A stretch of DNA of 64,000 nt from Paraspadella gotoi (lineage: Eukaryota > Animalia > Chaetognatha), in contig CM119264.1 of assembly GCA_051294375.1 (NCBI GenBank), forward strand, positions 19,475,590 to 19,539,589, written 5' to 3'. The position numbers were made by a program, and so were the translations under genes. Below the pieces are notes generated by a model. It ran no database searches and was not told where the DNA came from. It worked only from the letters and a program-made list of their open reading frames with translations. Positions 4,693 through 64,000 of this stretch are shown in pieces; position 1 is the first letter of the stretch; each line of letters opens with the position of its first letter.

Positions 4693-4741
<49 letters not shown>

Positions 4742-5595: not shown

Positions 5596-6173
5596 TGAAG
5601 AGACAGTAATTATTGTTATATGTTAGTGATAGAACCGTTCAATATAAGCAGTCCCTGAGCTTCGGTTAAGCGCCCCGTCCCTCTTAACTGCTAAGCGACC
5701 ACCGGGCTAGAACCCCAGATCTTTGGGTTGGGAGGCGAATGATTTGCCTCCGGCACCAATGGCCGCTGATGAATGGTTGGTAGATTTTAGTCCACCATAC
5801 ATCCCCCCTGCCGTAGGGAGAAGTCTTTTACGTCTCTTCAGTGAATTGTTGTTTGTTGGTGGAAAGTTCGTCACCATGTTGAAGCATGTCGCCTGAAAGT
5901 GTCGTTGTTGCTGTTGTGTTCGGAAGTCGGGCTCACCAATGAAGAGACAGTAATTATTGTTATATGTTAGTGACAGAACCGTTCCATATAAGCAGTCCCT
6001 GAACTTCGGATCAGGCTGTAACACCATGTTACAGGCAGGTTAAGCGCCCCGTCCCTCTTAACTGCTAGGCGACCACCGGGCTAGAACCCCGGACATTTGG
6101 GTTGGGAGGCGAATGACTTGCCTCTGGCACCAATGGCCGCTGATGAACGGTTGGTGGATTTTAGTCCACCATA
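5596..6173 (-). mobile_element. Family A TRIM (miniature non-autonomous LTR retrotransposon) with tRNA-like module in the LTRs, full-length copy A1
   Basis: Direct repeats 5596-5801 (30-bp internal deletion) and 5940-6173 (outer two bases missing). On the minus strand: LTR..CA-T-TGGTGAGCCCGAC (PBS, 5926-5938), internal region, GGGGGGA (PPT, 5802-5808), TGTATGG. Flanked by ATTG (5592-5595, 6174-6177), a candidate 4-bp TSD. No retrotransposon coding sequence. Confidence 0.85.
6068..6140 (-). ncRNA. tRNA-derived module inside the family A LTR (not a functional tRNA)
   Basis: 73 nt: acceptor stem GCGGCCA/TGGTCGC, degenerate box A (TGGTGCC.GAGG), anticodon-like loop CT-CCC-AA, box-B-like GGTTCTAGCCC in a CCGGG/CCCGG stem. 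The anticodon stem is unpaired. Equivalent modules at 5694-5766, 48267-48339 and in the 21888-22545 copy. Confidence 0.7.
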
Positions 6174-6336: not shown

Positions 6337-6472
<136 letters not shown>

Positions 6473-7217: not shown

Positions 7218-7300
<83 letters not shown>

Positions 7301-7594
7301 TGTGGATAAATGTAGCGAGGGAATTGTGAACGGAATGCCGCGTTTATTCACGAAATGGCTTCGCGTGCGACTACCATGAATTTTCCCTCGTCCCCCCACA
7401 TTCCCACCCTTACAAAAATTACAAAATTTATAGAAAATTCGATATGACATATCCTTATTATGTGGAAAATTCATTGAAAGTTATGACATGGTAAAAATAA
7501 TTTTAAAATACCTGAGCCAGTATTTTCCTAATCACTCTGTCACCTCAAGTCGTAAATAAATTAAGAGCTGCGAAACTTGCGGAGGAAAAGAAAA

Positions 7595-8135: not shown

Positions 8136-8403
8136 AACTTTCACTACGCTCTGACAGAACTGGAAAGAAATTTGAAAAAAAAATATGACTTGAATGGAAA
8201 CGCCCGTCACTACTTCCGAATCAAAGTCAGATTAAAAAAAATGAATCGGGAAGTTTGTGAAGCAAATTTCGTTCGCTTTTTGTGACCAAACTTTTAACTT
8301 GTCCTTCATACGAAATCCGGTTGTCTTCGATTCGAGGCAGTCTTTTTCTATCTTTCTCGCTCCCGCTCTCTCTCTCTCTGTCTCTGTCTCTCTCTCTTTT
8401 TTA

Positions 8404-8405
8404 TT

Positions 8406-8493
<88 letters not shown>

Positions 8494-8500
8494 TTTTTCT
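8404..8500. repeat. (TTTC)n microsatellite
   Basis: Tetranucleotide run; similar tract at 35323-35474. Confidence 0.95.
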
Positions 8501-9002
8501 TTCTTTCTCTCTTTTCATACCATTGGCGTTCAATGTTTTCCAGCAGAAAGGGAAGAAGAAAAAAAAGAGAGAGAAAGAAAAAAATAAAAAAGAAAGAAGC
8601 CTTTTATTTTCGACTTTTTTTCTGCTTCAAAGAAAACTGGCGCGGTTTTGCGCCGTTGGCTGCCAACGTCGGTGCTATCTTCCTTGGCTACTTTCTATCC
8701 CTTCCTTTCATCCTTTCCTTTTAACATATCTTGTTTTAATTTTTCCTTCTTTTTTCTATCTTTTTTTTTTTACCACTTTTTTAATTTTCTTTCTTTGCAT
8801 TTTGTATTTTGCATTTTTTCATTTTTGCATTATTCCTATATTTCCAATTTTGATTCTGTATTATCTTCTTTTTCTTTTCCTCCATCTTTCCTTTTTCTTG
8901 ATTTTCTTCATTCTTTCATTTGTTTTGTTTTTCATTAGTTACCCCATTTCAACCTGTTTTTCCTTCCCTTCCTACCTTCTATACTTATTTCTCTCCTATC
9001 TT

Positions 9003-9426
9003 TCTTTGGCTGTCTGTACAGTACAAGCGGAGCAACTCTATAGGTCACTTTTCGGTGAGTCTGTCGGTAGGTCGCTCGGTCGTTCCGTCGGTCCATCGGT
9101 CGGTCGCTATGTCTGTCTGTTGTTCTGTCCCACTTACATTAAAAATGCATATAATTTGCTTATAGTTGGTTGCTCATTTGTTACGACAGAAAAAACTTCA
9201 AATCTAAGGGACTGCTAGCGCTGCCCTCAGAAAATCCTAAAAATAGAAGGAATAAAAGATGGAATTTTGATTCAATGCATGTCATAAATACATTTTACAC
9301 ATGCTAAGAAGTTTTTGCAGTCATGTATTCATGTCATGTCATGTCACGTCATGTCATGTCACGAAAAATATATATGATAAGGCAGTCACTTCGGCGCAAC
9401 ACATTTGAATTACCGTCCTTGTTTTT
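9003..9426 (+). mobile_element. Family F HINE/DINE-1-like non-autonomous Helentron element
   Basis: gcggagcaactctataggtcacttttcgg followed by a GTCG/GTCY microsatellite, internal (CATGT)n, end cttgtttt; homologous over its length to 29632-29992, with a reverse 5' fragment at ~39100-39150. Confidence 0.7.
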
Positions 9427-9643
9427 CATCTGGATCTATCGTTTTTTTATTTCTTCCTTTCCACCGCGAGTCCGTTTCTTCCAGTTTTATTATCGTAACA
9501 AAAATCAAAGAAGAATTACAAAGCGCCGGATTCGGAGGAAAAAAAGCAACCGAACATTTTAAAGACTGTATAAATAAAGTGTACATGAATCTTAAATAAA
9601 AAATCAGAATCCAAATGTAATAAAATTATACGCTGCTCAAAGA

Positions 9644-9732
<89 letters not shown>

Positions 9733-12700: not shown

Positions 12701-15700
12701 CCATTCCCACCCCTCTCTGTTCGGCCTCTTAGATATTATGATTTTTCATTATTGACTTTCTAACAGGAATGATGTGTGATATCTATTAGTAAACTAGGAC
12801 AGATTGTAGATTGTAGTCTAACCTTGTGTTGTATAGATGCTCCCTCTATTTCCAGAAGACAACACTGACCTCCCCCTTCCAAAATGAGTTAATAAATATA
12901 ATATGCAATTTTTTTTAAAAAAAAGTAATATATATATAATTTTAAAAAATAGATCAAATAGTAAAACATTCATAAAATAAAAAAAAATAAGATAGTGAAA
13001 TAAGTAATTTTGCAAATTTTAATAAGAAAAACGATACTAGTATACTGACGAAAACTACTGAATCAATTTGAAAGCTGCCGACTATAATCGCCCCGATGAT
13101 GACAATTGCGACGACTACGACGACGACGACGACAACGAAGACGACAACGCCAGGATGGTTCTTTCATATCCTCACCTCGAGCGCGACGACGACGAGAACG
13201 ACGGCGGCGGCGGCGCTCCTCATATTTATGTTTGTTGTTATCATCTTTTGCTCATTTGTTTGTGGGAGAAATTTCAAAGGCGGCGTTCTCCTCCGCCGAC
13301 GGCGTCATGGCGACGATGGATCCCCTCTTTGGCGTCGGCAGGAAAGAGGCTGGGGGGTGTGAAAGAGAGGCGGTGGCGAGGGAAGATCTGAAAACCACGA
13401 AGGGCGAGAATTTGTAGCCGAAGAAGCGCCGTCGCACTTGCTGCAGCGCGACCGAGCACCTGCTGCAGAACGGAGTTGCACTTGCTGCAGAGTGGCAGGG
13501 TAATTTTTCGGGAATTCTAAAGCGTATAAAAGATCTTGGCAAATACAGTCTCTGTTAACGCGTCCGAGTTTGGGATGTTCGCGGCGGCGAAACGAAGCCA
13601 ACGTCGGGCGAAGGAATTCCACGAAAGGTCGAACTCTGACGAGGGATGTTGCACGACTTCGGGGAAGAGATCGAGTGGAGAGAGGGTTTGATCGGCGCGG
13701 CGGCGAGGAAAACGAAAAAACGGGAAACGTTTTTCAGCGACGCGAAACAAGGAAATTTAGAGCGTAAGAGGGAAATAGAAAGGTTTTTTATGCTCGGAGA
13801 TTGAGTAGGGTTTTTGGCTTTTTTTTATGCTTGAGGATTAAGGGTTTTTTATGTGACCGGGGTTTTTCTTTTCTGTTTGTTCCAACGAAATTGGCGGATA
13901 AATCCTTTCCACGCCAGATGGTATTACGTAGGTTTTACGTCACTGTTACGTCGATGGTCAAAAACACGTACGTCCGATTCCGTTAAGGATTTTATGTCCT
14001 GCGGCAATTGGTAATTCGCTTTCTTTCTTATCTCTATTCTCCAAATTGACTGTTTTTAGTTTTGTTTTTGTAGTCAAGCAAATTGTATATGAGGGAGTTT
14101 TTGTCTGCAAAAAAAAAATATTTACATTAATGAAAAAGAAATGTCAGTTTTCGATCCTATAATTTTTTTTATTTTATCAAGGATAAGCGATAACTTTTTT
14201 AATGTTTAAACATTCATATACATGGTAATAGATTATTTTCACTTTAACTTTAGTGACAGTAGGTCTACAAAACTGAATAGATTTCAGCAGCGAGTCCTTT
14301 CTTGATTGCACCCCGACCAAGCTAAGCTTAGCCTTCCTCGAACCCTCACAACTGAGTCCTTCTCGGCTTCGATGACGGAGTTCCTTCACGGACGAGCGAG
14401 AAAGACGATGCAAAAATTCTGCTGCGTCAAAGGAAGCGGAAGTCGCGGGGATTTTACGCCTCTGATCCGAGATGCGACGTGAGACGAAAGTAGATTGTCG
14501 AGACTCGGGAGGAAGGAGTTGGAGGCGAAACACGACGACGACCAAAACGCTTTGCGATTCGCAATAATTCTCATCGAGCTTCCTAGTAAAATTTCGACGA
14601 TCGACAGAAGAGTGAATAGACAATTAGACAATTAGACAATTAGACAATTAGACATTAGACAATGGACATTCAATGTACTACTTTGCTCCAACTGTAATAT
14701 AGAAAAATATAGTAGACTAAGTTGAGAAAATAAATGAATATGATGTAGAAGACGAAAATAGAGAAATAAATAAATAAAAAGTACGTAGGGGCTTGGACTA
14801 TATATCTTCAAGAGGATATTTGTGATACGAAAAAAGAGATAAATACATACTAATACAAAAATAGGCAAAATTTTGCGACGATTGGCGCGGATTATAAATT
14901 AATAATTAAATAAATAAATACTGAATAAAACATCGGCGCCGGTGTTTTGGAGTAGTGCCGATGACGGCTCGAACGGTGACGGCGGCATTCGCGTCGGCGT
15001 CGGCGATTTAAACGTTTTTTTCCGCTGAAGCGTCTACGCCCATTTCTCCTCCATCCGGCCGCGGAGTCGGGAGTCGGAGCCTCGTTTTTTATCTTTTGTT
15101 TCCGCGTTTCGCCGCCGCCACTGTAGATGGCAGCGCGATTCGTTTATTGTCGCCGTCTTTAGTCGTCTGTTTTTTTTCTTCTTCCTTTTTAAAAGTTTTA
15201 AAAAACGGAATATTCAATGCATACGTGAGTGGGTTGTGTTTCTCCCAATTATTTTTTATTCGTCGTAATTAACTATGAGTCTGACTTCAGTTTCAAGAAA
15301 TTTTAGCGCAATCAATATATTTCGTGGTGAAATAAAACGCGAGAGCACAATCGATGTAAAAATCCGGATTCTATGAGTTTTTGTAAATCACTTTTATTTT
15401 ATTCTATTTCTTATTCTATGTCTTGATCAAAAAAATTTAATCATATATCATATATCAAAACAAAAATAATATTGTTTTGATTTATAAAATATTTTTTGCA
15501 AATTCTAAAATATTATTAGTTCCGCAGTAACAGTTCAGTTTAAGCCCTTGAAAGTGATTTACATGTATTGGCGCAGCCACTAGTTTTTTTTCTCTTGCTT
15601 TTGGATACTTTTCATCCAATAAGTGAACAAATAAAGCGTTTAAATACTATCTGGCGCGTTAAAAGGTCAAACGGCGAAGAATATCTTTTTATTGTCCAGA

Positions 15701-19531: not shown

Positions 19532-20682
19532 AACAAGCTTGAGCGAACAATGTCGGATCTGCCCACGATCATTAGCGGTAATTAATTAATTAATAAATAC
19601 AAACTAATAAACTAAAATAATAATTTAATTAATAAATTAATTAATTTGATTTGAAATGTTTGTTTTTAGATCTTTTCGTCATTGACCATGACAGAAGCAA
19701 CGACGATGATGATGGCGACGACGATGATGGCAACGACGACAATAATGCCGATAACAACTTACTTTATTGATTGATTAATTGATTAAATAATTAATTAATT
19801 TATAAATAAATTGATTGATTGAATAATTAATTAAAGATAACTAAATAAATTAATTCATTGAATAATTAATTGATTGATTAATGAATAATGACTGATTAAT
19901 TAATTATTAACCAATTAATTGATTAATTAACTGATTAATTAATTAATTAATTAATACATTTTGCATTTACATTTAATATAAAAGGAAAAAGAAGCATAAT
20001 CAATTTTTTCCATTTAAACTCATTTCCACTGAAAGATATTTTGTTACCTTGCGTTGGGTCACTCTTTTTTAGTCATTTAGGTTGACCTTACCTAACCTTA
20101 TCTTTTCACCGTTCTAGTCGCTTTCTTGTGGCTTTCTTTCGGCCTATTCCATCAGAATCATTTTTAAAGATAAGATCGGCCGTCTGGAACCGTAGTTTTT
20201 ACAGATCCAAGGATTTATTACAAACATTTTTTCGACTTTTCATTGATTTGACATGGATTTATCTCTACAAAAATACAAATAATTCACAATTTATTCTACA
20301 TTTTTTGACGTTTTCTTTACGCTTTGAGATTTAGTAAAATACTACGAAATCCTTGCTCATTGTCAATATCTGTTCATTTTCTACACAGACGATTCTATCA
20401 AAACTTGATTTCCAGCTTATTCACACATTTTCCTACCCACACACAAAATTTCATTCCAATCCATCCCTCCAATCACGAGCAATTGGAGTTTTTTGCTAAG
20501 GTGGGACGAACGGACAGACGTACGGACCGACGGACATCGTTTTTTTTTTTGCATAATTTATGATAATTCGATGTTCTGACATAATATAAGTGAATGCCCG
20601 ACAAGATTGAGGGAGCGGACTGACGGACCGACAAAGTGAATTATAGAGTTGGGATCTGCTGATGAGCAGATCCGACTAAAAA
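19532..20682 (-). mobile_element. Family D HINE/DINE-1-like non-autonomous Helentron element
   Basis: Subterminal inverted repeat gtcggatctgc/gcagatccgac, terminal hairpin gatctgct-gatg-agcagatc, GTCY-type microsatellite (gacggacagacg), (TTAA)-rich core, T-rich ends; homologous to 55079-55922 and 60073-60617. Confidence 0.8.
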
Positions 20683-21887: not shown

Positions 21888-22545
21888 TGAAGAGACAGTT
21901 ATTATTGTTATGTGTTAGTGACAGAACCGTTCAATATAAGCAGTCCCTGAGCTTCGGATCAGGCTGTAAGACCATGTTACAGACGGGTTAAGCGCCCCGT
22001 CCCTCTTAACTGCAAGGCGGCCACGGGGCTAGAATCCCGGACCTTTGGGTTGGGAGGCGAATGACTTGCCTCCGGCACCAATGGCCACTGATGAATGGTT
22101 GGTGGATTTTAGTCCTACATACATGCCCCCCTCCCGTAGGGAGAAGTCTGTTGCACTCTTAGTGATTGTTGTTTGGTGGAAATGTACGTCAAAGTTTAGG
22201 CATGTGCCTGATTGTGTTGTTGGCGGAACGTGGCATCACCAGGTTTGACCGGGCTGCGCCTTGCAAAGTAGTGTACTTGCTTGTTGTGTCGGAAGTCGGG
22301 CTACCAATGAAGAGACAGTGATTATTGTTACGTGTTTACTAGAACAGAACGTTAATATAATCAGTCCTGAGCTTCGGATCAGGCTGTAAGACCATGTTAC
22401 AGGACGCGGGTTAAGCGCCCGTCCCTCTTAACTGCTAGGGCGGCCACGGGCTGAACGAGCGTAAGCATTGGTCGGGGGCGAATGACTTGCCTCCGGCACC
22501 AATGGACGCTGATGAAAGGGTTGGTGGATTTTAGTCCACCATACA
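21888..22545 (-). mobile_element. Family A TRIM, full-length copy A2
   Basis: LTRs 21888-22123 and 22308-22545 (TG...ACA on +); PBS and PPT positioned as in A1; right LTR is indel-rich; no TSD seen. Confidence 0.85.
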
Positions 22546-29631: not shown

Positions 29632-29992
29632 TTTCGCGGCGAGTACTCGCGGAGCAACTTTTTAAGTCACTTTTCGGTCGGTCCGTCGGTCGGTCGGTAT
29701 GTCTGTCTGTCGGTCTGTCCCTCTTAGGTTAAAAATGCATAAAATTTGCCTATAGTTGGTTGCTCATTTTTAAGACAGAAAAACCTCTAATCAAAGGAAT
29801 AGCTAGCGCCTCCTTCAGGAATTCCTAAAACTATAAAGAATAAAAGACGTAATTTTGATGCAGTGCATGTCATAAATATAGGGGCAAAAAGTCATGTCAT
29901 GTCATGTCATATCATATCATGTGATCAAAGGGAAATACACGTGAAAATAAAGTCACTGCGACGCAACACATTGTAATTACCGTTCTTGTTTA
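29632..29992 (+). mobile_element. Family F HINE/DINE-1-like element
   Basis: Homologous to 9003-9426; 5' hairpin cgcggcgagtactcgcgg, (GTCG/GTCT)n, (CATGT)n, end cttgttt. Confidence 0.7.
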
Positions 29993-31667: not shown

Positions 31668-32556
31668 TTTTTTTTTTCTCGGAAAGCTAAGAAATGACCC
31701 ACAAAATGAGGCGCCGTTTTCGAGAATCGTAACAGACGTGCATTTTTTGGAGAAAGGACTTGGCGTTTGTTTTCGTCGAAACAAAAAGCGTTCTTCTCAC
31801 TCAGTGAAAAATTGGCAATTGACATAATTGAATGCGACATAACAAGAGAAGCAAGCTGCCCTGGCGCATTTCACTTTCTGCCGAGAATCGATATAATTTT
31901 TCGTAGTTGCCAAAGGTTATTCGAGCCGTTTTTTTTTAAGATTTACTTAAACATATAAATGAGAGATAACCAAAAAATTTAGATATTATTTACGATTCTG
32001 ATGATCTTATAAACAACTTACGAATACTATTTGAATGACCAATTAAAATGGACATCTTTATGGTCTCCCTTATTTTTTTAATATTAATATGGTTTTTACA
32101 ATTATTTTCTATTCTGTTTTTTTAAGCAACAAATACTTTTTTATTCTTATGTATTTTTCAAACATGTTCATCATCCTCATCTTTCGCTTTAACTGACAAA
32201 CATACCTGCGATAATGTCAAGGTTTTAATTTTTCGACACGTATTTACTGCAGAATCCTGGAATGGCAGGGGACGACGCAATAAAGAAATAGATTGGTTTC
32301 TTCGTAGAATTTCTTTTAATATCCGAAGAGTGTATAATTTAATAATTTATCGGTAGACATTGTGAGAATCTGACTCCCCTCAAGAAAAAACGGGGGATTT
32401 GTGACAAAAAATAAGAGACTAAACACATAGTATTGGTTCGGAAGCTTTCCACAATCCGTCTTTGGACATGTCTTCTTTTCAGAAAGGCGACTCTTCTCTC
32501 TCTCTCATCTCTCCTCTCTCCTCTCTCCTCTCGTCTCTCTCTCTCTTCTCTCATCG

Positions 32557-32589
<33 letters not shown>

Positions 32590-35321
32590 CATTTTCTATT
32601 TCTATCTCTTTCCTTCCCTCTCATGCTTTTTTCCTCTTAACATAGAAACCAATTTTGTCCCCCTTTTCTTCACATTCTCTCCTAATTGAATTTGCAGCCA
32701 TAAGCGTCTCAGTCTGGGATGAATTATAATGAGCCTCTTTTCTTGGGCAGGGGGGATATGGTGACTCCAGGTGGTATGGGTAAGTTGTGGGCGGGGTGTT
32801 GGCAAATGATGGTCTAATATTTCTTCGAACTCACGTAATTGACTTGTATCGTTTTATTTTGTCGCAAACTTGCGATTTAAAAACAGAAAATTTTTTGGTT
32901 CTTCTCTCAAGAAAAGACTAAGACATGTATAGTTTAAAATTTTGACGGATAGATGGGTTAAATTTTAAAACCAAGATACAATTCAAATAAACTTGTTTTA
33001 CAATAAAAATACGAAATATTTCGTATGATTAATTTTAAAAAAATATAAATTCGGTGAAGAATGGTGCACTTCTTTTTTTTTTTTAAATGGTACGAGACTG
33101 TTTTTGTTCACTTACGGGAAATTTAAAATCTGACAATTTTCATGTATTAAAATTTAAACTTTCCTCCCCCAGGCGATTTTTTTGATTCGAATTCGGTTCA
33201 ATATCGGACAATACACCCGACGGTAATATTAAAAGCAAAATTTTTAATTTCCTTAATTTCCTTAATAACGGAAAAATTCGACATGTAATCGCCGTCGGTG
33301 ATATGAACGATGGCGGCTCGCTCTCGTTTTCCCCGATTCCTCGTCTTTTCTCACCCTTTCCGCGTTTTAAGAAAGAGTTTCTCCGCTGAATGTGATGACG
33401 GATCGATTTTCTTGCTAACGAAATTCTCCTCTCCTCTCCCGTTTTCTTTTTTTCCCTTCTTTGTTTCTTCTTCTTTTCCGTCTTACGGGCGAACGAGCGC
33501 TCGTTTGATCTTTTTTTCTTACCAATAGCTTTTATTTTTTGTTTTTTTTCTTTCTTTTTTCTCTTTCTGTATGGGCTTTTTTTTTTTTCATTTTGCCTTT
33601 CTTNNNNNNNNNNNNNNNNNNNNNNNNNATTTTTTTTTTCTCGGAAAAGCTAAAGAAAATGACCACAAAATGGAGCGCCGTTTCGAGAATGTAAAGACGT
33701 GCATTTTTGGAGAAAGGACTTGGCGTTGTTTTCGTCGAAACAAAAAGCGTTCTCTCTCACTCAGTGAGAAAATTGCATTGACATAATTGACTGCGACATT
33801 AACAAGAGAGCAGCTGCCCTGGCGCAACTTTCACTTTTCTGCCGAGAATGATTAATTTTTCGTAGTTGCCAAAGGTTATCGGAGCCGTTTTTTTTTTTTA
33901 AGATTTACTTATAACATTATAAATGAAGAGATACCAAAATTTAGATATTTTTACGATTCTGATGATCTTACAATTACGAATACTATTTGAATGACCAATT
34001 AATGGACATCTTTATGGTCTCCCTTATTTTTTTAATATTAATATGCGTTTTTACAATTATTTCTTATTCTGTTTTTTAACAACAAATACTTTTTATTCTT
34101 TATTATTTTTCAAACATGTCATCATCCTCATCTTCGTCGCTTTAACTGACAAACATACTGCGATAGATGTCAAGGGTTAAGTTTTTCGACACGGGAATGG
34201 CAGGACGACGCAATAAAGAAAATATGATGGTTTCTTCGTAGAATTTCTTTTTAATACGAAGAGTGTATAATTTATAATTTATACGGTTAGACAATTGTGA
34301 GAATCTGACTCATTCAGAAAAAAAGGGGATTGTGACAAAATAAGAGACTAAACACATAGTATTGGTCGGAAGCTTTCCACAATCCGTCTTTGAGACATGT
34401 CTTCTTTTCAGAAAGGCGACTCGTTCTCTCTCTCTCTCTCTCTCTCTNNNNNNNNNNNNNNNNNNNNNNNNNNNNNNNNNNNNNNNNNNNNNNNNNNNNN
34501 NNNNNNNNNNNNNNNNNNNNNNNNNNNNNNNNNNNNNNNNNNNNNNNNNNNNNNNNNNNNNNNNNNNNNNNNNNNNNNNNNNNNNNNNNNNNNNNNNNNN
34601 NNNNNNNNTCTCTCTCTCTCTCATTTTCTATTTCTATCTCTTTTCCTCCCTCTCATCTTTTTTCCTCTTACTAGAACCCAATTTGTCCTTCTTCAAACAT
34701 TCTCTAATTTGAATTTGGCAGCCATAAGCGTCCTCAGTCTGGGAATGAGATTAAATGAGCCTCTTTCTTGGGGCAGGGGGGATATGGTGACTCCAAGGTG
34801 GGTAGGGTAAGTTGTGGGCGGGGGTGTGGCAAATGATGGCTCCTAATATTTTCTTCGAACTCACTAATGACTGTATCGGTTTTTATTATGTCGCAAACGC
34901 GATTTAAACAGAAACTTTTTGGTTCTTCTCTCAAGAAAAGACTAAGACATGTATAGTTTTAAAATTTGACCATAGATAGGGTTAAATTTTAAAACCAAGA
35001 TACAATTCAAATAAACTTGTTTTACAAATAAAAATAACGAAATAATTTTTCGTATGATTAAATTTTAAAAAAATAAATAAATCGGTNNNNNNNNNNTCCT
35101 CGTCTTTTCCCGCGTTTTAGAGAAAGAGTTTCTCCGCTGAATGTGATGACGACGATTTCTTGCTAACGAATTCTCCTCTCCCTCTCCCTTTTTTCTTTTT
35201 TCTTCTTTTTTCTTCTTTTCGTCTTACGCCCGCTCGTTTGATCTTTTTTTCTTACCAATATGCTTTTATTTTGTTTTTCTTTCTTTTTTCTCTTTCTGTA
35301 TGGCTTTTTTTTTCATTTTGC

Positions 35322-36685: not shown

Positions 36686-37175
36686 TGAGAGAGTCTTGTT
36701 TGAAAGCTTGCAGGGAACCTGCATGTCATTATCTTGTAATTAGTGATTGGAGCTTAAACCACCAAAGCCTGTCCAAAGTCAGGGCAAGATAGCTTATTTA
36801 TTTAAATGAATGGATTAATTTTTATATTGAGTGGTACCAATTTCATAAAATTTCAGCTCCTGGTAATTTGATGCTAGTGCGGAGTACAATAAAGTATTCC
36901 CCGATTCTATACTTAAGGAGGTGCGTCTTTTTCATACAATTGAAACATTCTTTGAAATATTTATCCACTTCATTGATAGGGAAGCCAGGTAACTCTGGGA
37001 GTGAATAAACGGGACTGTGAGAGAGTCTTGATTGAAAGCTTGCAGGGACCTGCTATGTCATTATCTTGTAAGAGTGATGGAGGCCTTAAACCACCAAAGC
37101 CTGTCCAAAGTCAGGGGCAAGATAGCTTATTTATTAAATGAATGGATAATTTTTATATTGGTTGTACCAATTTCA
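36686..37175 (+). mobile_element. Two family E LTR-like repeats (36686-36845, 37016-37175) around a 170-bp spacer
   Basis: ~160-bp TG...CA direct repeats; purine-rich aaacgggac precedes the second; no clear PBS or TSD. Confidence 0.55.
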
Positions 37176-38823
37176 TCTGATATTTCTCATAAGCAAGTAC
37201 AGTCCCGTTTTGAATTTATCAATCTTCCTATTTTTGGTTTGACTCCCAACTTTTTAGTACAGATTTTTTATAGTAACTGTCATATTACTCCTGTCTTGTT
37301 GTCTTTCCTTATTAGCCTTGTAGTAATAATCGACTTTTTTTCGTACTTTCCTTGCGATTTGACATTTGGTTTCTTAGTTGGCCTTTGTGTAAACTTAGTA
37401 TCCTCGTGGTAGGCCTCTTTGATCATGTTCTCAACCCCTTAAGCCATCGTTCTTCACGAGCACTTCAATCGTCTTCTTGCATTCAGGCGATCTCGCTTCC
37501 CGGCCAATGACCACGCCTTTCTTCCGGACGATCCCAGTGACGGGCGACCCATCTCCCAGCTCCGTCCCCCGGCCTGTTTGACAACCTCCCCCCTGTCTCC
37601 TCTTCGTCCTCGACATCATCCATCAAAATTAACTCGTTTTTTCTTCACATTCGACCATCATCCTGACGGGGGGGGATAGGGGGCGGGGCCTTGGGCTCAA
37701 CTCTCAATCTCATTGTTACTTTTAACTGCATGAGCGGGGACTCGGGAGGGTATTGCTAAAGATAAATTTTTTGACAGAAGAAAAAATGACGAAAATATTT
37801 GCGACATGATGATTTCTGTTCCTTACTTTACCTAAATTTTCAGAACTCCAATTTTAACTAAAGTTGAAATATTTAGAAACGAAACAGGAGGTATAATAAT
37901 GAGGGAATTGGGATTGAGATTGAGCTATGTAAATAGTAACAAAACATTTTTAAAGAAAACCTAACTGCTATTTTTGGAGAAGACTAGGTAAAAAAAAAAA
38001 GACAACGAATGGCGCAAGGCCAAGGGTCGGAGAAAAATAATTAGCATAAAAGGCGACGGTGAAAAATTACAAAAATAGTAAGAACAGTAAATTGACGGAG
38101 AATAATAGAGAGTAATAGAGTTGTAAGTTAAGAAATTTAATAGATGCCTTCGAATGGAAATGCAGCTTTCTACAATAACTTTGCCTAATGCCTAAAGATC
38201 GCAGTAAACTTTAGGAATGGAGTCGTACAGGCAACGTAATACGTAGTAAAAGGCTGAGAATAAAAAGCATCAAGCTTACACGAAAGAGCCTCTCGTTCCT
38301 GTGGGCATTGTTTCGACTTTCCAGCAACCAGAAGAGAGAACGCTAATTTCTTAAACCGTTTGCACGACTCTCCGTGGAGATTACAAAAACGACGAAAACA
38401 CCAGCTCCTGGAGAAGAAGGAAAAATCTCAAATGGGAAAACAGGGAAAGCGATAAGAGGGCCACAATAAAAAAACAAAACCAAAAGGAAAAAAAAAACCA
38501 CTAAAAAAAAACATCGCTCCTTCATGGATAAAACCGGAGGACAAGCAGCGCGTTGTTTCCTTCAGGGCGAACTAAACCGAAAATAAACAACACCGCCGAC
38601 AACAACGACGACGTCGAAAACGACCGCCGGCGACGACGAAACAATCCAACGATTCGAAAAAAAGGGATAGCAATTAGCAATCCTAAAGTGTTATACGACA
38701 GTTTCTTGATCGCAACTCTAGATATTTACCTATAAAACACATATTTAAATAAAATAATAATATTTATTTATTTTTTTTATTTATTATTATTTTTTTTTAT
38801 TTATTACTTTTTTAAAATTTATG

Positions 38824-38870
38824 TATTTATTAAATAATGGATAATTTTTATATTGGTTGCACCAATTTCA
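38824..38870 (+). mobile_element. Family E 3' fragment
   Basis: tatttattaaat..tggataatttttatattggttgcaccaatttca matches the family E end. Confidence 0.55.
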
Positions 38871-39432
38871 TAATATGCGTAATAATTAAAATAGCTTTAA
38901 AAAGAGTTATAAAGCAGTTTCTGTTCACTTTCAATATTATTCATTTATGTATTCATTTATTAAATATTTTATATTACATCACCTGCCTGTCAGATATTAA
39001 TCAAAATAATATTTTTTATCCCAGTTATAGAATATTTAAAATAGCATTAAAGGAAAAAGTCGATGATAGGATGGATCAATAATAAGATAACAGTTAAACA
39101 AACTAACCGACGGGCAAAAAAAGTTACCTATGGAGCTGCTCCACGACCAATACCGAAGCTTTTAATAAGCGAAGAAAAAAGGAAAAAAAGGGAAAAAATG
39201 GGCAATAAAGATTAGAGAAGGAAGCAAAAGAAAGTTTTGGGTGAGTCGATGTCAAAAATGGGTCAGATAAAAAGAAAAGAAATAAATTCATGCAAAAACA
39301 AAAGGAAAAAAAGAATTTTTAATAGATCGAAAATCAAATGCGAAATATTTTTTTTTTTCAATATCAAGAGCGAATCAAAATTTCGATATGATGTACGTCT
39401 AGTGGAAAGGAAGAAAGGAAGAAACAAAAAAG

Positions 39433-39700
39433 TGTGGATAAGGCGCTAAGCGCGCTGAAGTATGCAACTTCTTTAACCCACGGAACGGGTCCTAGGCTGT
39501 GAACCAGGCTTGAGGGTTTTCCAGACCCCCGGGTTTTCCAGGCTCCCAAGGCTGATCACGGCCGTCCTCCCGCTCTCGCGCAGGGTAGTTACCTAATGCA
39601 ATGGTCATTAGCTGATGGTATTCGTCAATGAGCCACCGGGTGACGACAGAAAGTGTCATGCTCTTATAGGCGGGGTGAACGTGTTGCAATGCCGACAACA
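39433..39700 (-). mobile_element. Family B LTR-like element with partial tRNA-like module (B1)
   Basis: Homologous to 57950-58210; minus strand: CCTATAAGAG, then CACCCGG-TGGCTCATTGA (box A-like), ending GCGCCTTATCCACA. Confidence 0.65.
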
Positions 39701-43358: not shown

Positions 43359-43522
43359 TGAGGAGACAGTAATTGTTATGAGTTATTGACAGAATCGTTC
43401 AATATAATTAGTCCCTGAGCTTCGGAACAGGCTGTAAAACCGTGTTACAGGAGGGTTCAGCACCCCGTCCCTCTTAACTGCTAGGCGACCACCGGGATAG
43501 AAACCCGGACCTTTGGGTTGGG
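43359..43522 (-). mobile_element. Family A LTR fragment A3, truncated at a MITE
   Basis: Matches the first ~165 bp (on +) of the family A LTR. Confidence 0.8.
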
Positions 43523-48138: not shown

Positions 48139-48592
48139 TGAAGAGACAGTCATTATTGATAAGAGTTAATGACAGAACCGTTCAATATAAGCAGTCCCTG
48201 AGCTTCGGATCAGGCTGTAACACCATGTTACAGGCGGGTTAAGCGCCCCGTCCCTCTTAACTGCGAGGCGGCCACCGGGCTAGAACCCCAGACCTTTGGG
48301 TTGGGAGGCGAATGACTTGCCTCCGGCACTAATGGACGCTGATGAACGGTTGGTGGATTTTAGTCCTCCATACATCCCCCCTCCCATAGGGAGAAGTCTA
48401 TTGCGTCTCTGTTGTTGTTGGTGGAAACTGCGTCACCAAGTTGAGGCAAGTCGCCTGATGTGTTGTTGGCGGAAAGTGCATCGCCAGGTTGAGGCATGTC
48501 GCATGTTCGGAAGTCGGGCTCACCAATGAAGAGACAGTAATTATTGATAAGTGTTAATGACAGAACCGTTCAATATAAGCAGTCCCTGAGCT
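48139..48592 (-). mobile_element. Family A TRIM copy A4 (complete 3' LTR, internal region, 66 bp of 5' LTR)
   Basis: LTR 48139-48374, PPT GGGAGGGGGGA on minus immediately adjacent, PBS 48513-48525, partial LTR 48527-48592. Confidence 0.85.
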
Positions 48593-51707: not shown

Positions 51708-51792
51708 TGAGAAGACAGTAATAATTGTTATGAGTTAGTGACAGAATCGTTGATTATAAGCAGTCCCTGAGCTTCGGATCAGACTGTAACAC
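51708..51792 (-). mobile_element. Family A LTR fragment A5
   Basis: 85-bp match to the same LTR end as the other copies. Confidence 0.75.
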
Positions 51793-55078: not shown

Positions 55079-55922
55079 TTTTTAGTCGGATCTGCTGATA
55101 ATAATAATAATAATAATAATTCACTTTGTCGGTCCGTCGGTCCGCCCCCTCAATATTGTTGGGCACACACTAATATCATATCAGAACATCGAATTATGAT
55201 AAATTATGCAAAAAAAATTATGTCCGTCTGACTGTCTGTCTGTCTGTCTGTCCTTCCGTCCGTCCGTCCGTCAGTCCGTACCACTTTAGCAAAAAACACC
55301 AATTACTCGTGATTGGATGGATGGATTTGAATAAAATTTTGTGTGTGAGTAGGGAAGTGTGTGATTGAGTTGGATATGAAGTTTCGATGGAATCGTCCGA
55401 GTGGAAATGAGTTTAAATGGAAAAAACAAAAAAATATATTTCATTATTTGAACACCTATTGCTCATGAGTGGATGGGGCGATTGACCTTGAATTTTGTAT
55501 GTGGGTAAAAAAGTGTGTGATTAAGCTGGAAATCAAGTTTCGATGGAATCGTCTGAGTAAAAATGAGTTTAATTGAAAAAAACAAAAAACCTGTTTCACT
55601 AATATTAATTTAAATGTAAATGCAGGATGTATTAATTAATCAAATAATCAATCAATTAGTCAATTAATTAATCCATAATTAATTAATAAGTCAATCGTTA
55701 TCGGCATTATTCTCATCGTCATTGCTTTTGTCGTGGTTAGTGACGAAAAGACCTAAAAACAAACATTTGGGATCAAATTAATTAATTAATTGCCTAATTA
55801 AATAATTAATTAATTTATTGCCTAATTAATAAATAAATTCACTTGAATAATATAATTATTAATTAATTAATTACCGATAATGATCGTGAGCAGATCAGAC
55901 ATTGTTTGCTCAAACTTGTTTT
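55079..55922 (+). mobile_element. Family D HINE/DINE-1-like element
   Basis: ttttagtcggatctgc start, (GTCT/GTCC)n, internal ~160-bp duplication, gcagatcagacattgtttgctcaaacttgttt end. Confidence 0.8.
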
Positions 55923-56754: not shown

Positions 56755-56879
56755 TGTTATGTTATTATCTTGGAAGAGTGATGGAGGCCTTAAACCACCA
56801 AAGCCTGTCCAAAGTCAGGGACAAGATAGCTTATTTATTAAATGGATGGATAATTTTTATATTGGTTGTACCAATTTCA
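56755..56879 (+). mobile_element. Family E LTR-like repeat
   Basis: Near-identical to 37060-37175. Confidence 0.6.
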
Positions 56880-57077
56880 TAGGAACGTTGGGGAATTTTT
56901 TAACTCATGAAAAGATCAAATATCAGTCATAGTCAGTCAGTTAAGAGTAATAACAACTCGTTTCATTTCACTCTTATTTGAAATCCGTGTATATTCAACA
57001 TGAAAAAATTCGCAATCTGTAAACGCCTTCATTTCCTAGATTGCATCGCGAAAATGAGTGGTATATAGCGTACAGTC

Positions 57078-60000
57078 ATGACGTCGGCTTCCCCCAAGGG
57101 GGAAATGACAAGTGCAACAGCCCCCGGACTAAAGTTCGGCGTGGTAAGACATGGACCAATGAACCTATGAAGATAACTAAAATCACAATTCTTTTTTTTT
57201 CTCTATGTCCTATTTGCTTTTTCTCACAGGCCCCCATGAATGCCGCTCATGGGGTCGTTGCCACCATCAAAACCGGAACTGATGCTCACCATGGGGTCCC
57301 CCAGCCCCTGGAGGCTCAGATTGTGAATATTTCTTCCCTCTCGTTTGATGTGCCGCTTGAAAATGCATGTGTTAATGAAGGATCAAAGTAAGTAAAGCGT
57401 GACGTAAGAATCGTGATTTTAATTTTACGTTACATGTAAAGATACAAATCTAGTTTTTTGTTTTGTTTTGTTCTATCAGACATACTCTGCAATGCCGCGT
57501 TCGTGTAAACCATAAAATGCCAAAAATTGAATGGTATAAGGATGGTCTCATTATTAATAACCCTGACTACAAAATAAACCAATCTCCTGATGGAACGTGT
57601 TCTCTTACGATTGAAGAAACTATGATCGACGACTCTGCCAAGTCAGTCAAATTGTAGTTATCCTGGGGCCCTACTATATTTTAACCGTTTAAAAAATTAT
57701 CCATATATATTCTTATCAGGTACACCTGTCGAGCAACTTTTGCTCCGGGTGGCGAGGCCGAAACCTCCGCAATGTTAGTGGTCAGCGGTGAGTACTTTCT
57801 TTGTACGAATACGTTATTTCTCAATTTATTTTCGTGATGTCATTTTCTCACTATCTTTTCAGATCCACGTAATCCTGCCACAATTATTTCGCCAATGATT
57901 AAAGAAAATAAGTCTGCCAATGCACAGGTAAGAAATCGTGAGTTAACATTGTGGATAAGGCGCTGAGTGGGCTGAAGAGTGCTATCCGCAACTTCTTTAA
58001 CCCCTCTAGCAGCCATGGAACGAGTCCTGGGCTTGGAACCAGGCTTGAGGGTTTTCTAGGCCCCCAAGGCGGTTTACGGCCGTCCTTACGCTTCCCTCAG
58101 TTTAAGGACCCGGTTGGGAATGAACCCGGTACCTAGTGGACTTGAGCTGATGGCTTTACTCAATGAGCCACCGGGTCACAAATGATGGTGTCATGCTTAA
58201 AGGCGGGGATTTCAATTTTTTATATTTACAGACTACCGAAATGACAAATGACAATATTCAAATGAAAGAAACGGCTTCCACAGCCTCTGAAATGAAGGAA
58301 GAAGATTCCCCGAATTCTAAGTCAGTTTCACTAAAGAAAAGCGACCAAGCGACTTCAAAAAAGGTTAGCCTTCTCAGTTCTCATTTCTGATACGGTTCCC
58401 GAAGAGTTTTGACTTGAAGTTTGTGAAGGGGGGCGTGGCCACTGGGTTCTCCTGTGAGAAGGGTAATTTTTATGGAGCCTCTTTTCTTGCTTATTTTTAG
58501 GTGGTTCTATTGGACAATGGAACCACGTTGCAGACTTCCATATCTTCTTCCAATTTTGAGTCAACGTCTTCATCTAACGTGATGAACGGACCAATTTCCC
58601 TTGCAGGTAGGACTTCATCGCGGTCACGTCAATCTGCATATCATTGGTCTTACTCATTTTTTTATCTTATCTGTATCGTTGCGTCCACAATCGCACCCAT
58701 TTCTTTTCGTTAGGCCCAATGCCGCAACATGGTATACCTGCCGAGCACTTGCTTCCAAATTTCGAAAACATGGCATCAGCGATGCAGAAAACCGCGATGT
58801 CAATGCAGTCTCAGTTGCAAGCCCAAGTACAAGCTCAAATGCAGTCACAGATGAACGCGATGCAGAGCAACGTTTCATCATCTTCACCGCAGGCTCGTCC
58901 CGAAAAGGACTTCCCGTAAAACGGGAAATATTTGTTAGATTGTTTTAGCCGACAGTTAAATAAATTTTTAATGAAAGTGCCAAAATTACTTGCTTCACTA
59001 TTTTATCTTTTTAAATTTTATAATATTAGTTTTAAAATTGTCATATTTTTATAATATTTTTGTTAATATTTTTTAAATTTTCTGTTTGTTTTTTTTCTGT
59101 TCTATTTTTTATTTCTGGGATGGGGATGTTAGTGTGTTGCCTTCTGGAAATAGAGGGAGCATCTGTACAACACAAGATTAAAATACTTTCTTGCAATGTC
59201 ATTAATGAGATTATTAATGAGATCTTAAAAAATCTAGGAGGCTGATGTCACAGGTAATACAAATTTACTAGTAAATAAAAACGAAGAAATTTTTTTAGGT
59301 TTTACATTAGAGACCAATTTTTCACATGATTTCGTATTTTTAATTTTTTTAATTCTATTTTCAATGGAGGTGTTGCTCAAATGAGGACATCGACATTGTC
59401 GACCCGACGATGTCCTTATTCGAATCCCACATGTATTAAAAACAAAATATTATAAAATGTGGACCAAGTCATGTTAAAAGAAACATCCTAATTCGTTCGT
59501 CAATAAATTTAATCTTCCAGATGATGTCGTCCGCTTCTTCGCAAAAGATTATTGAAAAGACACAAAATCAATTCGCCGGCCAAATGAATATGGCGCCGAA
59601 AGCCATTACGCAGCAATCTGTTATTAACAAAGAATTGACACAAAAACTTCGACTTGCCACGCCAGTCCCAAATGGTTCGTAGAAACATATAGAGCATGCC
59701 CGTAAAAAATAAAAAATAAAAATATATTTATGAAATTAGTACAACCGAGACAAAAACAGTATTACAATAAAAACAATATTTAACAGTTATGAGGATCACT
59801 TTAAGCTACACAGTAGTTAACAATACAAATAAATACTTTTCTGAAAATAATTCTTTCCCAGGATCATCCATCAACATAATGTTTTAAATTGTTTCTAATT
59901 TTAGCGGAAGTTGTGGCTCCCGATTTCGTGAAGAAAATAGAAAATAGCGAGGCTTCCGTCGGTTCATCCGTCACTTTCGAAGCCGAAGTCAGTGGATCAC

Positions 60001-63000
60001 CACAGCCTACTATTACCTGGTGAGGTGGTCGGTGGGATGAGGAACGGTCACTAGAAGATAATATAGATAAACTGGATATGAAGTTTCGATGGAATCGTCC
60101 GAGTGGAAATGATTTTAAATGGAAAAAACAAAAAAAATCTATTTCATTATTTGAATACCAATTGCTCATGAGTGGATGGGGCGATTGACCTGAAATTTTG
60201 TATGTGGGTAGGAAAGTGTGTGATTAAGTTGTAAATCAAGTTTTGATGGAATGAGTTTAAAGGAAAAAACAAAAAACCTGTTCCCTAATTTATTATGCTT
60301 CTTTTTCTTTTTATAGTAAATGTAAATACAAGATGTACTAATTAATCAAATAATTTTTCAGTTAATTAATCAATTAGTCAATTAATTAATCAATAATTAA
60401 TTAATCAATCAATCAAGTCAATCGTTATCGGCATTATTCTCATCGTCGTCATTGCTTTTGACGTTTTTAGTGACAAAAAGACCTAAAAACAAACATTTCG
60501 GATCAAATTAATTAATTGATTGGCTAAATAATTAATTAACTTGAATTATTAATTATTAATTAATTAATTACAGATAATGAACGTGGGCAGATCCGACATT
60601 GTTTGCTCAAACTTGTTAATTGTATTTTCTGAACTTTTTTTTCGTAATAAATACTAAAATACTATCTAGTAAAAAAGTATATCACATAATTCATTTATTA
60701 AAAAAAAATATTTAAAATATGGGTAAAACATTCTCAATATTTTGTATGCTCTTCTTTGGCATTGATTACTGCCTACATTCATCTAGGCATGCTCTCATAC
60801 AGCAAATTGAGGTATAACAGTAAAATATTTTTCTACATCTTATTGTCTACTTATCCTTTTAAGCCCTGATATTTATGTTGCGCATCTTTCCCTCTTTTCT
60901 GATAGCTAAAATAGCACTTTTTTGAACCCAAAACAGGTGCAAGGCCTTTAGCATTACCAAATTACCAAAAATAAAAGAAAATTAAATATGATTTTTTTTC
61001 AACATTTTTCATTTGAAATAACAATATTTTTTTGCCTGTAACTTCTAAACGATTTGACCTACAAAAAATAAAAGGAAGTTACTGAAAGGAAATTCAATAT
61101 AGATTTGAAATATTTTGATTTTTTTTAAATCAAACACGTTTTCGAGTAGATATCCTTTATTAGAAATGTGATATATTTTTTCCTAGATAGTAACTACAAA
61201 CATGTAAGGAACATACAAACAGAAAAGGAGACAAATCAAGACGTGACTCAAAAGACAGTTTCATCGTTTATCACGTCTTGACTTATATCTAGAATTTAAG
61301 CGATGAATGATGAGACGAAGATCGGAGGGATGGAAAAAAGCCAAAAACAATTATTTTTTAAAAATATCAAATAAAATAATAAAACCATTCCAGGCTAAAA
61401 GAGAATCGCCCAATCGACGACTCACCAACTCGAAAAATATCGTGCGATACACAACGGTGCAAACTCACCATCCCTCTGGTTACTGAGAACGACAAGGGAA
61501 GGTTCATGTGTAAAGCTACAAACATTGGGGGTAAGTTAAAACGGGCGAAAAGAAGGGAGATGTGAATAAGTTGCTGAGGTTTTAGACAATTTATATCTCG
61601 ATGAACATCTTTTGTGCTAACTACCGATTTTTAGTTATTAGCGTAAAAATTTTAAACAGAAATATTCTATTATTTTAAAATCAGTTTAGAAATGAAATGA
61701 AGCAGAAACATGTCTGTTTTACAATAAAATAAAATCGTTGTCAAAACTAAACTCAAACTGTCTCTAATCGTCCCAAACAACGAAAAGAAAGGATTTATAT
61801 CTCAAAATCAGTTTAGAAAAATTCGGGAAAAAAAATTTTACTTTTTCTAATATTTTAAAGCCTTTATATATATTTCTAAACTTTATTATCAAGGCGAAGC
61901 CGTCTCCTCGGCAGTTCTTAACGTGGTCGCGTCTCAAAGCGGATTGGAGGAAGCTCCTAAAGGTATGAATATGAGAAAGAGAAAAGAAAAGAAAAAGAAA
62001 TCAAATAAAAAACATGAGAAAAAAAGAAAAAGAAAAATACGATATAACAAAAAACCGTCCATTGACGACAACCCTTGTCCTGCCAGTTATGGAAGTTCCT
62101 CCCGCCCATCTAAAATCAACGGCTGGGGAGCCCATCGTAATCTCCTGCCGATTCGCGGGATTCCCACCTTTCGAAATCACTTGGCTCAAGAATAACGTTC
62201 TCATTAACGACTCACCGACAGAGAAGGTTTTATTTGAATACTTATTACTTGGTTTTGTTTTGAACTTATGTGATTTTTAAATTTAAAATTGGTTCGCGAA
62301 TATGCTCGTCACAATACAATTTGATTATAAACCTACTGTATTTTTAAGTTGATAACGTTATTATTTATACTAAGTTTGGTTTATTTTGTATGTCTAATTA
62401 CTTATTGTTTTTATTGAAAGATCACCATCGAACTGAACTTCACCTCGCTCGAATTACCGGCGCCGAAACCGGCGGACACCGGGATCTACACTTGCGTCTT
62501 AAAGAACGCTCGTGGGCAGGCGATGACGAGTACTAACGTCTCCGTTACTCCGCCCACGGGCGTGGAGCAGGTCGGGAGGCGGTGGTGACGGGAAGATGAA
62601 TTATTGTCTACTTATCCTTTTTTTGCCCTGATGATGCGCTGAATGAGTCATTAAATGATTGAACTTTAGTGCCTTGTGCCTTTGTGACTTTCACGAACAA
62701 ACTCTTCCAGACCCCGCCGGTGTTGACGAAAGCTTTGAAAAATCTCGTCGTCACTGAAGGACTAAAAGCGAAACTCGACGCGACGATTGTTGGGGTGCCG
62801 GAGCCGGAGTGCATTTGGTATCACGGAGGTAATAATAATAATTGTAATTATAATTATCGTGGACGGGTAAAGAAGTGTTACAGGCAATGGGCTTAAATAT
62901 GCATGGCTCCGATTCCCGAGTTGAAAATTATCGAATTTTACTTATTACGTTTTACCGGAAGCGAACTTCTCAACTAAAATTTTTACAAAACGTCTTGCCC

Positions 63001-63834
63001 TAGGAATTCCTGTGAAAGAGTCCAAAGACATCAAACTGCTTTTCGAGGGCGACGATTGCACTCTGTTGATCAAAGAATGTTATCTTGAAGATGCAGGGTC
63101 ATACACACTCAGAGCGGTCAATCCACTAGGTGTCGTGGAAGAAACTGCCACTCTCACAGTCGAACGTAGGATTTGAAGTTTTTTGTTTTATTTTTTTTTG
63201 TCTTTGTTTTTTATTTTTTTAATTTTCTGGGCTGTGGGGAAATTGGATTAAACAAAGGACCACTAATCTCTTAACTAAAGAGATGTCGCTTTCGCAGAGC
63301 TCTCTATTAAACAAATGATTTGGAGTCTTTTACCAAAAAAACAAAAATGAAAAAAAAAAAAAAAACTGGAGAAAACTTCAAAATTAGAAAGGGGCTATCA
63401 CTAAGAGAAAAAAATATATGTTGAAAACATACAATAATAATTAAATAAAGGAAATACAAATTTGAACTTTTAAAAATAAAAACTCACAAACTTTAAATAA
63501 ACAACAAACTGTAGACGAAGTCACAGAATAATAAATATATATTCATGTTTTCGCTTTAAAATGATAATACATGTGTAATTGTGTGTACATTGGGGCGAAT
63601 TACAACGCCACATTTGCTTATACGTATTGTCCTCCAGCGTTAAGCACGACGAGCGAACTCAGCGATTCCCAGATGTCGCTGTGTCCACCGCGATTTACGA
63701 CGCCATTGGACGACGACGTGGAGGCGGTAGCGGGATCGTCTCTCCGCCTCGACATCGTCGTCGAGGGCGATCCGCTGCCGGAAGTAAGGTGGTCAAAAGA
63801 TGGAGTCTTGCTCAAGAATGGCAACAACCTCAAG
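57078..63834 (+). CDS. Titin/kettin/sallimus-like multi-Ig (I-set) muscle-type protein, 5' part, continues beyond the window
   Basis: 18 phase-consistent GT-AG exons: 57078-57143, 57230-57387, 57480-57641, 57720-57787, 57863-57927, 58232-58363, 58501-58606, 58714-58915, 59238-59253, 59521-59674, 59905-60019, 61394-61530, 61894-61962, 62087-62226, 62421-62570, 62711-62828, 63004-63165, 63638-63834. Four complete I-set domains and a partial fifth (PKIEWYKDG..CSLTIEETMIDDSAKYTCRA; APDFVKKIEN..GSPQPTITW..DKGRFMCKATNIGG; DTGIYTCVLKNARG; GVPEPECIWY..EDAGSYTLRAVNPLG; GDPLPEVRWSKDG), no signal peptide, S/Q/M-rich linker after Ig1. Exact orthology not determinable by eye. Confidence 0.92.
57950..58210 (-). 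mobile_element. Family B LTR-like element (B2) inside intron 5 of the titin-like gene
   Basis: Homologous to 39433-39700 with the same terminus (minus ...CCTTATCCACA); contains the tRNA-like module 58106-58177. Confidence 0.7.
58106..58177 (-). ncRNA. tRNA-derived module inside family B element (not a functional tRNA)
   Basis: GACCCGG TG GCTC ATTGAGTA AAGC C ATCAG CTCAAGT CCACT AGGTA CCGGG TTCATT CCCAA CCGGGTC C: perfect 7-bp acceptor stem, box A-like TGGCTCATTG, box B-like GGTTCATTCC; anticodon stem unpaired. Confidence 0.75.
60073..60617 (+). mobile_element. Family D HINE-like element, 5'-truncated, intronic
   Basis: Matches 55372-55920; ends gcagatccgacattgtttgctcaaacttgtt. Confidence 0.8.
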
Positions 63835-64000
63835 GTGAGAAGGAGAAAAAGTATGATTAGGAGGAGAAAACCGATGAAACCTCTTCCCTCTTCATGAAAC
63901 ACATTATGTCTTTGTCCTATGGTCCTATCCACCTTTTTTCGACACTTCGAATCTTACCATTGAAACATTTGACACTTGGTCTTTGACCTTTTACATCCCT

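Follow-up and report, generated by a model that had tools for sequence, protein, structure and literature searches.

A tRNA-bearing repeat family of the chaetognath Paraspadella gotoi with a predicted type-P5 twister fold in its putative LTR

Helenus elements (TRIMp3; Kojima 2024) are tRNA-bearing TRIMs of 311–1263 bp that occur as several families per genome and also as solo LTRs (PMC10886601). No ribozyme is described for them (PMC10886601), and according to the available portion of that paper the bivalve, brachiopod and nemertean Helenus LTRs have their tRNA part close to the 3' end, with a T run after it. LTR retrozymes of plants are a second class of non-coding LTR element. The accessible text of three reports (PMC4918200; PMC7761336; PMC9695139) describes a ribozyme in each LTR, a PBS, a PPT, a 4-bp TSD and many solo LTRs, the ribozymes being type III hammerheads and the PBS corresponding to tRNA-Met. 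Animal retrozymes are stated in the available parts of PMC7761336, PMC7229834 and bioRxiv 10.64898/2026.07.22.740005 to lack LTR, PBS and PPT.

The twisters so far associated with retroelements are those of non-LTR Perere-3/RTE elements, where they lie at the 5' end (PMC8501958, in its accessible part). Dimer-type ribozymes have been described among the hammerheads of Penelope-like elements and amphibian retrozymes, which in the available text of PMC6765202 and PMC7761336 combine a stem too short in cis with a palindromic centre and occur in paired elements. In a literature search that excluded Repbase and had most subscription papers outside its reach, we found no account of a twister in an LTR, a twister retrozyme or a natural dimer-type twister. 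The accessible parts of PMC10085705, PMC8782182, PMC5680766 and bioRxiv 10.1101/2022.07.19.500677 likewise mention none of the three.

Here we describe three repeat families, A, B and C, in a window of 64,000 nucleotides (the whole stretch of DNA analyzed) from the chaetognath Paraspadella gotoi. The best reading of family B, by analogy with these systems, is a Helenus-type LTR that may also work like a plant LTR retrozyme, with a twister in place of the hammerhead. Family B is classed neither as a retrozyme, as it has no hammerhead, nor as Helenus, as no pair of LTRs is seen.

Extent, ends and tRNA-like module of family B

Family B is represented in the 64-kb window by two copies, both on the minus strand, and no third copy was found there. 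B2 (39433..39700) is full length at 268 bp, decayed, and has the ends TGTTG...CCACA. B1 (57950..58208) is 5'-truncated by about 25 nt, with the 3' end CCACA at 57950. The two copies share 66% identity over 279 columns (E 2e-20). The original prediction of two copies, at 39433 and 57950, with an internal tRNA-like part, a common upstream block with a TATA-like hexamer and a CCACA end lacking a poly(A) tail is borne out. It placed the far end of the second copy at 58210; B1 ends at 58208 and lacks about 25 nt at the 5' side. The conserved leader is also present, but at about 57 nt before the tRNA-like module it is longer than the predicted 35 nt or so.

These ends are seen in many further copies, which were sampled through contigs of public sequencing runs aligned to B1 at 80% likeness (4249, 2056, 1877 and 379 contigs in four runs from three studies). 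Loose contig ends occur at both 57950 and 58208 in all four runs. At 57950, the CCACA end, they share nothing with one another (74, 45, 49 and 19 contigs; agreement 0.38–0.43). Past 58208 they share about 25 further letters ending in ACA in each of the four runs (49, 56, 53 and 16 contigs; agreement 0.63–0.68). B2 contains this 25-nt stretch, and contigs aligned to B2 show the same extension. Because other copies extend past 58208 by a stretch that B2 also has, the element is about 268 bp long and B1 is truncated at its 5' end. The family B unit thus runs from TGT to ACA over about 268 bp; its leader takes up about 57 nt ahead of the tRNA-like module, and a tail is lacking. The TG...CA ends of Helenus are found in B2 and in the loose ends of other copies. 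At least two subfamilies are apparent from further loose ends at 58008, 58096 and 58100, and they diverge over the 3' half of the tRNA-like module and downstream of the twister. In run X1, which may be the source of the window, the depth summed over B1 exceeds that of the flanks by a factor of about 700 to 13,000, a ratio that is not a copy number. Scans for family B patterns returned nothing in viral contigs or prokaryote genomes, and the one metagenome match is a chance match to unrelated G+C-rich DNA.

B1 lies antisense within an intron (57928..58231, plus strand) of a multi-Ig (I-set) titin/unc-89-like gene, with Pfam I-set matches on the flanking exons. This gene occupies 57480-63900 on the plus strand and has introns of about 75 nt; its Ig exons match arthropod proteins with titin/unc-89-like names at 31–55% identity. 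Without B1 the host intron would measure 45 nt, and the neighboring introns measure 78 and 75 nt. The 5' end of B1 was perhaps lost by a later deletion. Run X9, guessed to be RNA, covers the exons around the B1 intron but not the two neighboring introns; its 379 B-like contigs cannot show independent transcription, strand or ends. A 267-aa relative of the multi-Ig gene shows 93% identity (P0004), and a weak V-set/I-set Ig exon at 377-601 on the minus strand is part of another gene.

The tRNA-like module of B1 (58107..58177, minus strand) consists of a box A (58159-58170), a box B (58117-58126) and a 7-bp acceptor-like stem. The boxes read TGGCT and GGTTC, box A lacking the YGG, and they lie within the putative LTR as the boxes of Helenus do. 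The module is weak: ARAGORN called no tRNA gene for family B, the Rfam tRNA score of B1 is 14.6 bits against a cut-off of 29, and folding gave a z of -2.76 for B1 and -0.05 for B2, which has lost most of the 3' half. The predicted tRNA part stands in B1, below the tRNA cut-offs, and is degraded in B2. It is likely an RNA polymerase III promoter rather than a called tRNA gene. The B1 leader (58178..58208, minus strand) carries a G+C block (58202-58208) and the TATA-like hexamer (58196-58201, about -24 to -19 relative to the module), is shared with B2 and may contribute to the promoter. No T4 occurs on the transcribed strand in A or B, an absence with a chance expectation of 0.25–0.69 and so of little weight.

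A tRNA-derived SINE would have its tRNA part as a 5' head and an A-rich or repeat tail. In family B a shared leader precedes the module, and the repeat ends sharply at CCACA against unrelated flanks. The conserved leader and the TG...CA ends confirm that the tRNA part is internal rather than a SINE-like head.

Family A and the LTR status of family B

Family A, with five loci on the minus strand, shows directly what is not seen for family B. The element at 21888..22545 has an LTR-internal-LTR structure with a PBS (22295-22306), a PPT (22124-22135) and the twister fold in both LTRs; its flanks, CACA and CCTT, form no TSD. The element at 5596..6173 also has paired LTRs, with a PBS at 5926-5938 and a PPT at 5802-5812. 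It is flanked by a 4-bp TSD (ATTG/ATTG), lacks 2 nt at one end, and has a deletion in the twister fold of the LTR at 5596. At 48139..48592, one full LTR and an internal part (PBS 48513-48525, PPT 48375-48385) are joined to a 5'-truncated second LTR. A 5'-truncated single LTR with the twister fold (43359..43522) and a 5'-truncated LTR fragment (51708..51792) complete the set. Paired LTRs are thus found at three of five loci and a 4-bp TSD at one of the two complete copies. The PBS begins one base after the LTR and matches 13 of 14 letters of the tRNA-Trp-primed Gypsy-32_NVi and Helenus-2_SyJa, the PPT directly precedes the second LTR, and the internal parts measure 134–180 nt. Family A qualifies as a complete Helenus-type TRIM that also carries a twister fold in its LTRs.

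Families A and B have the tRNA-like module and the twister in the same order and at equal spacing, and are collinear although their sequences are only marginally alike; the alignment score was reached by 0–11 of 300 shuffles for B1 and by 72–216 of 300 for B2. Both resemble Helenus in the tRNA-like boxes within a short LTR, the TGT...CA ends, the several families per genome and the putative solo LTRs, and A alone also in its PBS, which is like that of the tRNA-Trp-primed wasp families, and in its one 4-bp TSD. They differ from it in the twister fold and, compared with the bivalve, brachiopod and nemertean LTRs, in having the tRNA part in the 5' half, followed by the twister and without a T4. 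The proposed radiation of such elements is not new in itself, as Helenus has already been described with several families per genome.

That the B copies are solo LTRs of a tRNA-bearing TRIM, as had been proposed, agrees with their TG...CA ends and internal tRNA part. However, no PBS, PPT or second LTR adjoins either B1 or B2 (neither of the two loci is paired), a 4-bp TSD is absent at the old copy B2 (flanks AAAG and AATA), and B1 has lost one end. No PBS consensus appears at the CCACA loose ends in any of the four runs, although contigs can miss collapsed copies. A head-to-tail B joint, from 58179 to 57983, occurs in three runs as one joint among the 15 of 93 that were listed, and from the B2 side a joint from 39662 to 39478 occurs in one run as one among 11 listed; the intervening letters are missing from both. 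Since young internal regions are collapsed into few and short contigs, pairs may exist even though the contigs show none. Among the joints listed no empty site was found at B1 or at B2, where the left flank, itself a repeat, was left out, and thus polymorphism yields no TSD. From the layout and the likeness to family A, we infer that the B copies are solo LTRs. That family B is an LTR at all is probable.

We considered two other origins for family B. It could be a non-LTR unit, either SINE-like or a non-LTR retrozyme, with a tRNA promoter and a ribozyme, inserted by a LINE or Penelope element and with LTR-looking ends by coincidence. That no PBS, PPT, pair or TSD is seen for B would agree with this, as would family C, which shares the twister and has no visible PBS, and the promoter-plus-hammerhead SINE-like repeats of Schistosoma in the accessible part of PMC6765202. 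Additionally, all seven truncated copies of A, B and C are cut short at the 5' end with the 3' end retained, a pattern that would also fit target-primed insertion. However, PBS-primed DNA synthesis that stopped early would give the same 5'-truncated copies ending at the LTR 3' end. The fixed leader of about 57 nt before the tRNA module, the absence of a tail, the sharp TGT and ACA ends in many copies, and the same layout in A accompanied by a PBS and PPT also speak against a non-LTR origin, which we consider quite unlikely.

Alternatively, family B could be a solo LTR derived from a long gypsy-type element that codes for proteins. Head-to-tail joints would then be rare in contigs, as they are, because the LTRs would lie kilobases apart, and the G+C block and TATA-like hexamer of the leader could serve polymerase II. 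However, no coding internal region is seen, the internal parts of the parallel family A are short, and Helenus elements span only 311–1263 bp (PMC10886601). This origin appears very unlikely. We somewhat favor the reading in which family B is a solo LTR from a small non-autonomous LTR retroelement of the same build as A, whose RNA is predicted from the modelled fold to cleave itself and circularize.

A predicted type-P5 twister fold in three families

The original prediction noted a GGACGG..TAA.CCGCC motif after the tRNA part in A and in a B copy; it is preserved in A and in the copy at 57950, but has decayed in the copy at 39433. This motif is very probably the core of a type-P5 twister-ribozyme fold, which the first reading overlooked. 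The layout common to A, B and C consists of P5, AAG, P2', GA, T1, a 6-nt palindrome, UAA, P2, T2, P3, P4 and an 8-nt L4. In B1 the fold occupies 58021..58098 on the minus strand, with P5, P2', L1/T1 (58083-58087), a loopless palindromic P1 (58077-58082), T2, a P3 hairpin (58044-58068) and P4/L4 (58026-58043), and the predicted cut lies between 58076 and 58075. The fold of B2 (39481-39581) shows three departures. B1 has an A at the position of the catalytic G (58087), where the G form accounts for 94–96% of the aligned depth in all four runs. The U-AA site and the catalytic G occur in five A and C sites and in that same share of the B depth, but not in B1 or B2 themselves. Contig depth within family B is highest around box A and over P4/L4 of the twister.

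Family C is A+T-rich and carries its twister fold on the plus strand. Its copies lie at 36686-37176 (in tandem, at 332-bp spacing), 56755-56880, 5248-5363 and 38824-38876. The fold at 37073..37115 has the same spacing as in the other families, and further examples lie at 56777-56819, 36742-36783 and about 5257-5338. The type-P5 fold of C is loopless, with a one-pair P3; all copies share a 3' end, and no tRNA module or PBS is seen. Family C is possibly a twister-bearing non-LTR retrozyme or a Penelope-type end repeat. Further dispersed repeats lie at 20374-20682, 55079-55575, 60068-60252, and 9083-9290 with 29673-29878, and a locally duplicated block lies near N gaps at 31678-35188. Neither our descriptor of the layout nor the model R1 (both below) finds a twister fold in these repeats or in the block.

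The Rfam Twister-P5 model scores B1 at 15.2 bits (E 0.8) and C at 25.8 and 22.7 bits, against a cut-off of 37.6, placing zero letters in the P1 loop of both, and does not match family A. Our descriptor, which was written after the sequences had been inspected, found five sites without a miss (three in A, two in C) and B1 with one miss, compared with 0 and 3 such matches, respectively, in 60 locally shuffled windows. With three misses allowed it recovered B2 and one chance site composed of A+T only. Three less circular checks were added. Across nine copies 90.3% of 154 cells are paired, compared with 21–55% when partners were slid; this count includes two decayed C rows, and in C the register is shifted at P3 and at one P4 pair. 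Changes on both sides are found in 11 of 18 pairs, including T1 and T2, although with only three families few independent changes lie behind this covariation. T1 is GGA/UCC in B, CGG/CCG in A and UGG/CCA in C, and T2 is GC/GC or AC/GU; the paired cells amount to 85% in T1, 100% in T2 and 91% in P4.

The model R1 was derived from three A and two C copies, with B left out; it scores B1 at 30.6 bits (E 2.9e-8) and B2 at 10.9 bits (E 0.25), both above every non-family match. R1 matches none of seven viral twister loci and is thus specific to the loopless form. The 18-mer of the B1 P4/L4 occurs in six viral contigs, four of which are Twister-P5 representatives at 49.6–53.2 bits, above the cut-off. 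Three of these four share the P1 base of B, and have a full hairpin where B has none. In its L4, B matches Rfam-grade viral twisters letter for letter, as it does Sma-1-119, the latter as given in the accessible part of its source. The viral contigs L003, L004, L006 and L007 (about 363-456) each carry a canonical Twister-P5 with a P4/L4 letter-identical to B. Two L4 words returned no matches in the available text of the Helenus consensus file (supplement of PMC10886601), where line breaks can hide matches. Minimum-energy folding missed the twister module (z of 0.22 for B1 and -1.71 for B2), as expected for a pseudoknotted fold. A four-way junction, a second tRNA-like fold, and hammerhead, HDV-like, hairpin and twister-sister ribozymes were also considered, and none has an Rfam match at the module.

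Compared with described type-P5 twisters (Rfam RF02684; PMC5408937 and PMC8501958 in their available parts), the fold shares the U-AA site, the GA with the catalytic G, a 3-bp T1, a 2-bp T2, the position of P3, and P4/L4. It differs at three points. P1 has 3 bp and is a loopless 6-nt palindrome in all three families, where twisters have a stem with a loop. The 5' strand of P2, at 3 nt, is one nucleotide short and forms two pairs and a mismatch or three pairs with a bulge, so that none of the families has the four-bp P2 of solved twisters; in the accessible part of PMC5408937, changes in P2 length are suggested to disturb the active site. Family A also has an A-U at the near-invariant G-C pair that closes L4. 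The short P2 is common to all three families, which points to a kept variant rather than decay.

These departures and the Rfam scores below the cut-off would also suit a fold that does not cut. Family B would then be an ordinary Helenus-type solo LTR with a linear LTR cycle, its twister-like fold being a relic or a signal for dimerization or packaging. Both B1 and B2 are damaged in the twister core, and the palindromes, which form intermolecular pairs at -8.3 to -10.7 kcal/mol, would also suit a dimer signal. However, all three families retain the UAA of the cleavage site, the GA with the catalytic G and, through compensatory changes, both pseudoknots, and the catalytic G is present in most of the B depth. 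A non-cutting fold is therefore unlikely in our view, and we regard active cleavage as rather likely.

Proposed cycle

The inner pairs of the loopless P1 cannot form in cis, yet they are kept in three different palindromes. This suggests cleavage as a dimer. Dimer-type hammerheads provide a precedent with their short stem and palindromic centre, although they belong to another ribozyme class and another type of element. However, P1 is dispensable in tested twisters, according to the available text on them, so that a dimer would not be required, and a monomer that closes P1 by a single pair around a loop of 4 nt may be possible. We put the need for a dimer at a little under an even chance.

By analogy, family B would most likely work in the manner of an LTR retrozyme that carries its own tRNA-type promoter. 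Polymerase III transcription would begin at the tRNA-like boxes, about 100 nt ahead of the twister. Where a copy has two LTRs, the RNA would run through both of them and be cut at each twister to release a unit-length RNA; the cut-to-cut distances in the paired A copies are 374 nt and, for 21888..22545, 423 nt. The palindromic P1, having no loop, would pair across the two LTRs of a single transcript, so that cutting would occur mainly in two-LTR transcripts. Once a host ligase had closed the RNA into a circle, reverse transcription from the PBS by a gypsy-type enzyme would yield DNAs of solo-LTR, unit or greater length for integration.

The circle cycle proposed for plant retrozymes, as set out in the available portions of those papers, fits the layout of A. 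In the accessible part of PMC4918200, solo-LTR cDNAs arise from a circular template, and in that of PMC9695139 the retrozymes of Nicotiana benthamiana occupy hundreds of loci, of which nine are full-length. Such a cycle yields solo LTRs directly and would explain the many B solos and few pairs. Families A and B differ from the plant elements in several respects: they are found in an animal, their fold is a twister with a tRNA-like module upstream, Rfam finds no hammerhead in either, and the PBS of A is of the tRNA-Trp type, accompanied by a PPT, with neither seen in B.

Taken together, these observations suggest a wider but tentative picture, which we hold to be possible rather than probable. 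Families A and B would be animal LTR retrozymes with a tRNA-derived polymerase III promoter, in which a twister in each LTR replaces the terminator and sets the RNA ends. A dimer-type twister would cut only when two LTR copies meet, so that two-LTR transcripts would make circles while thousands of solo copies would be harmless to host RNAs, and this minimal twister would have spread through at least three repeat families.

Such elements would join tRNA-bearing TRIMs, for which the way the RNA ends are set is an open question, with LTR retrozymes, described from plants with hammerheads. If this is true, a short natural twister variant with a loopless P1 and a short P2 falls under the Rfam cut-off, so that similar copies would be missed in other genomes. 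Twister ribozymes would then have a role in LTR retroelements, and retrozymes with a PBS and PPT would exist in animals.
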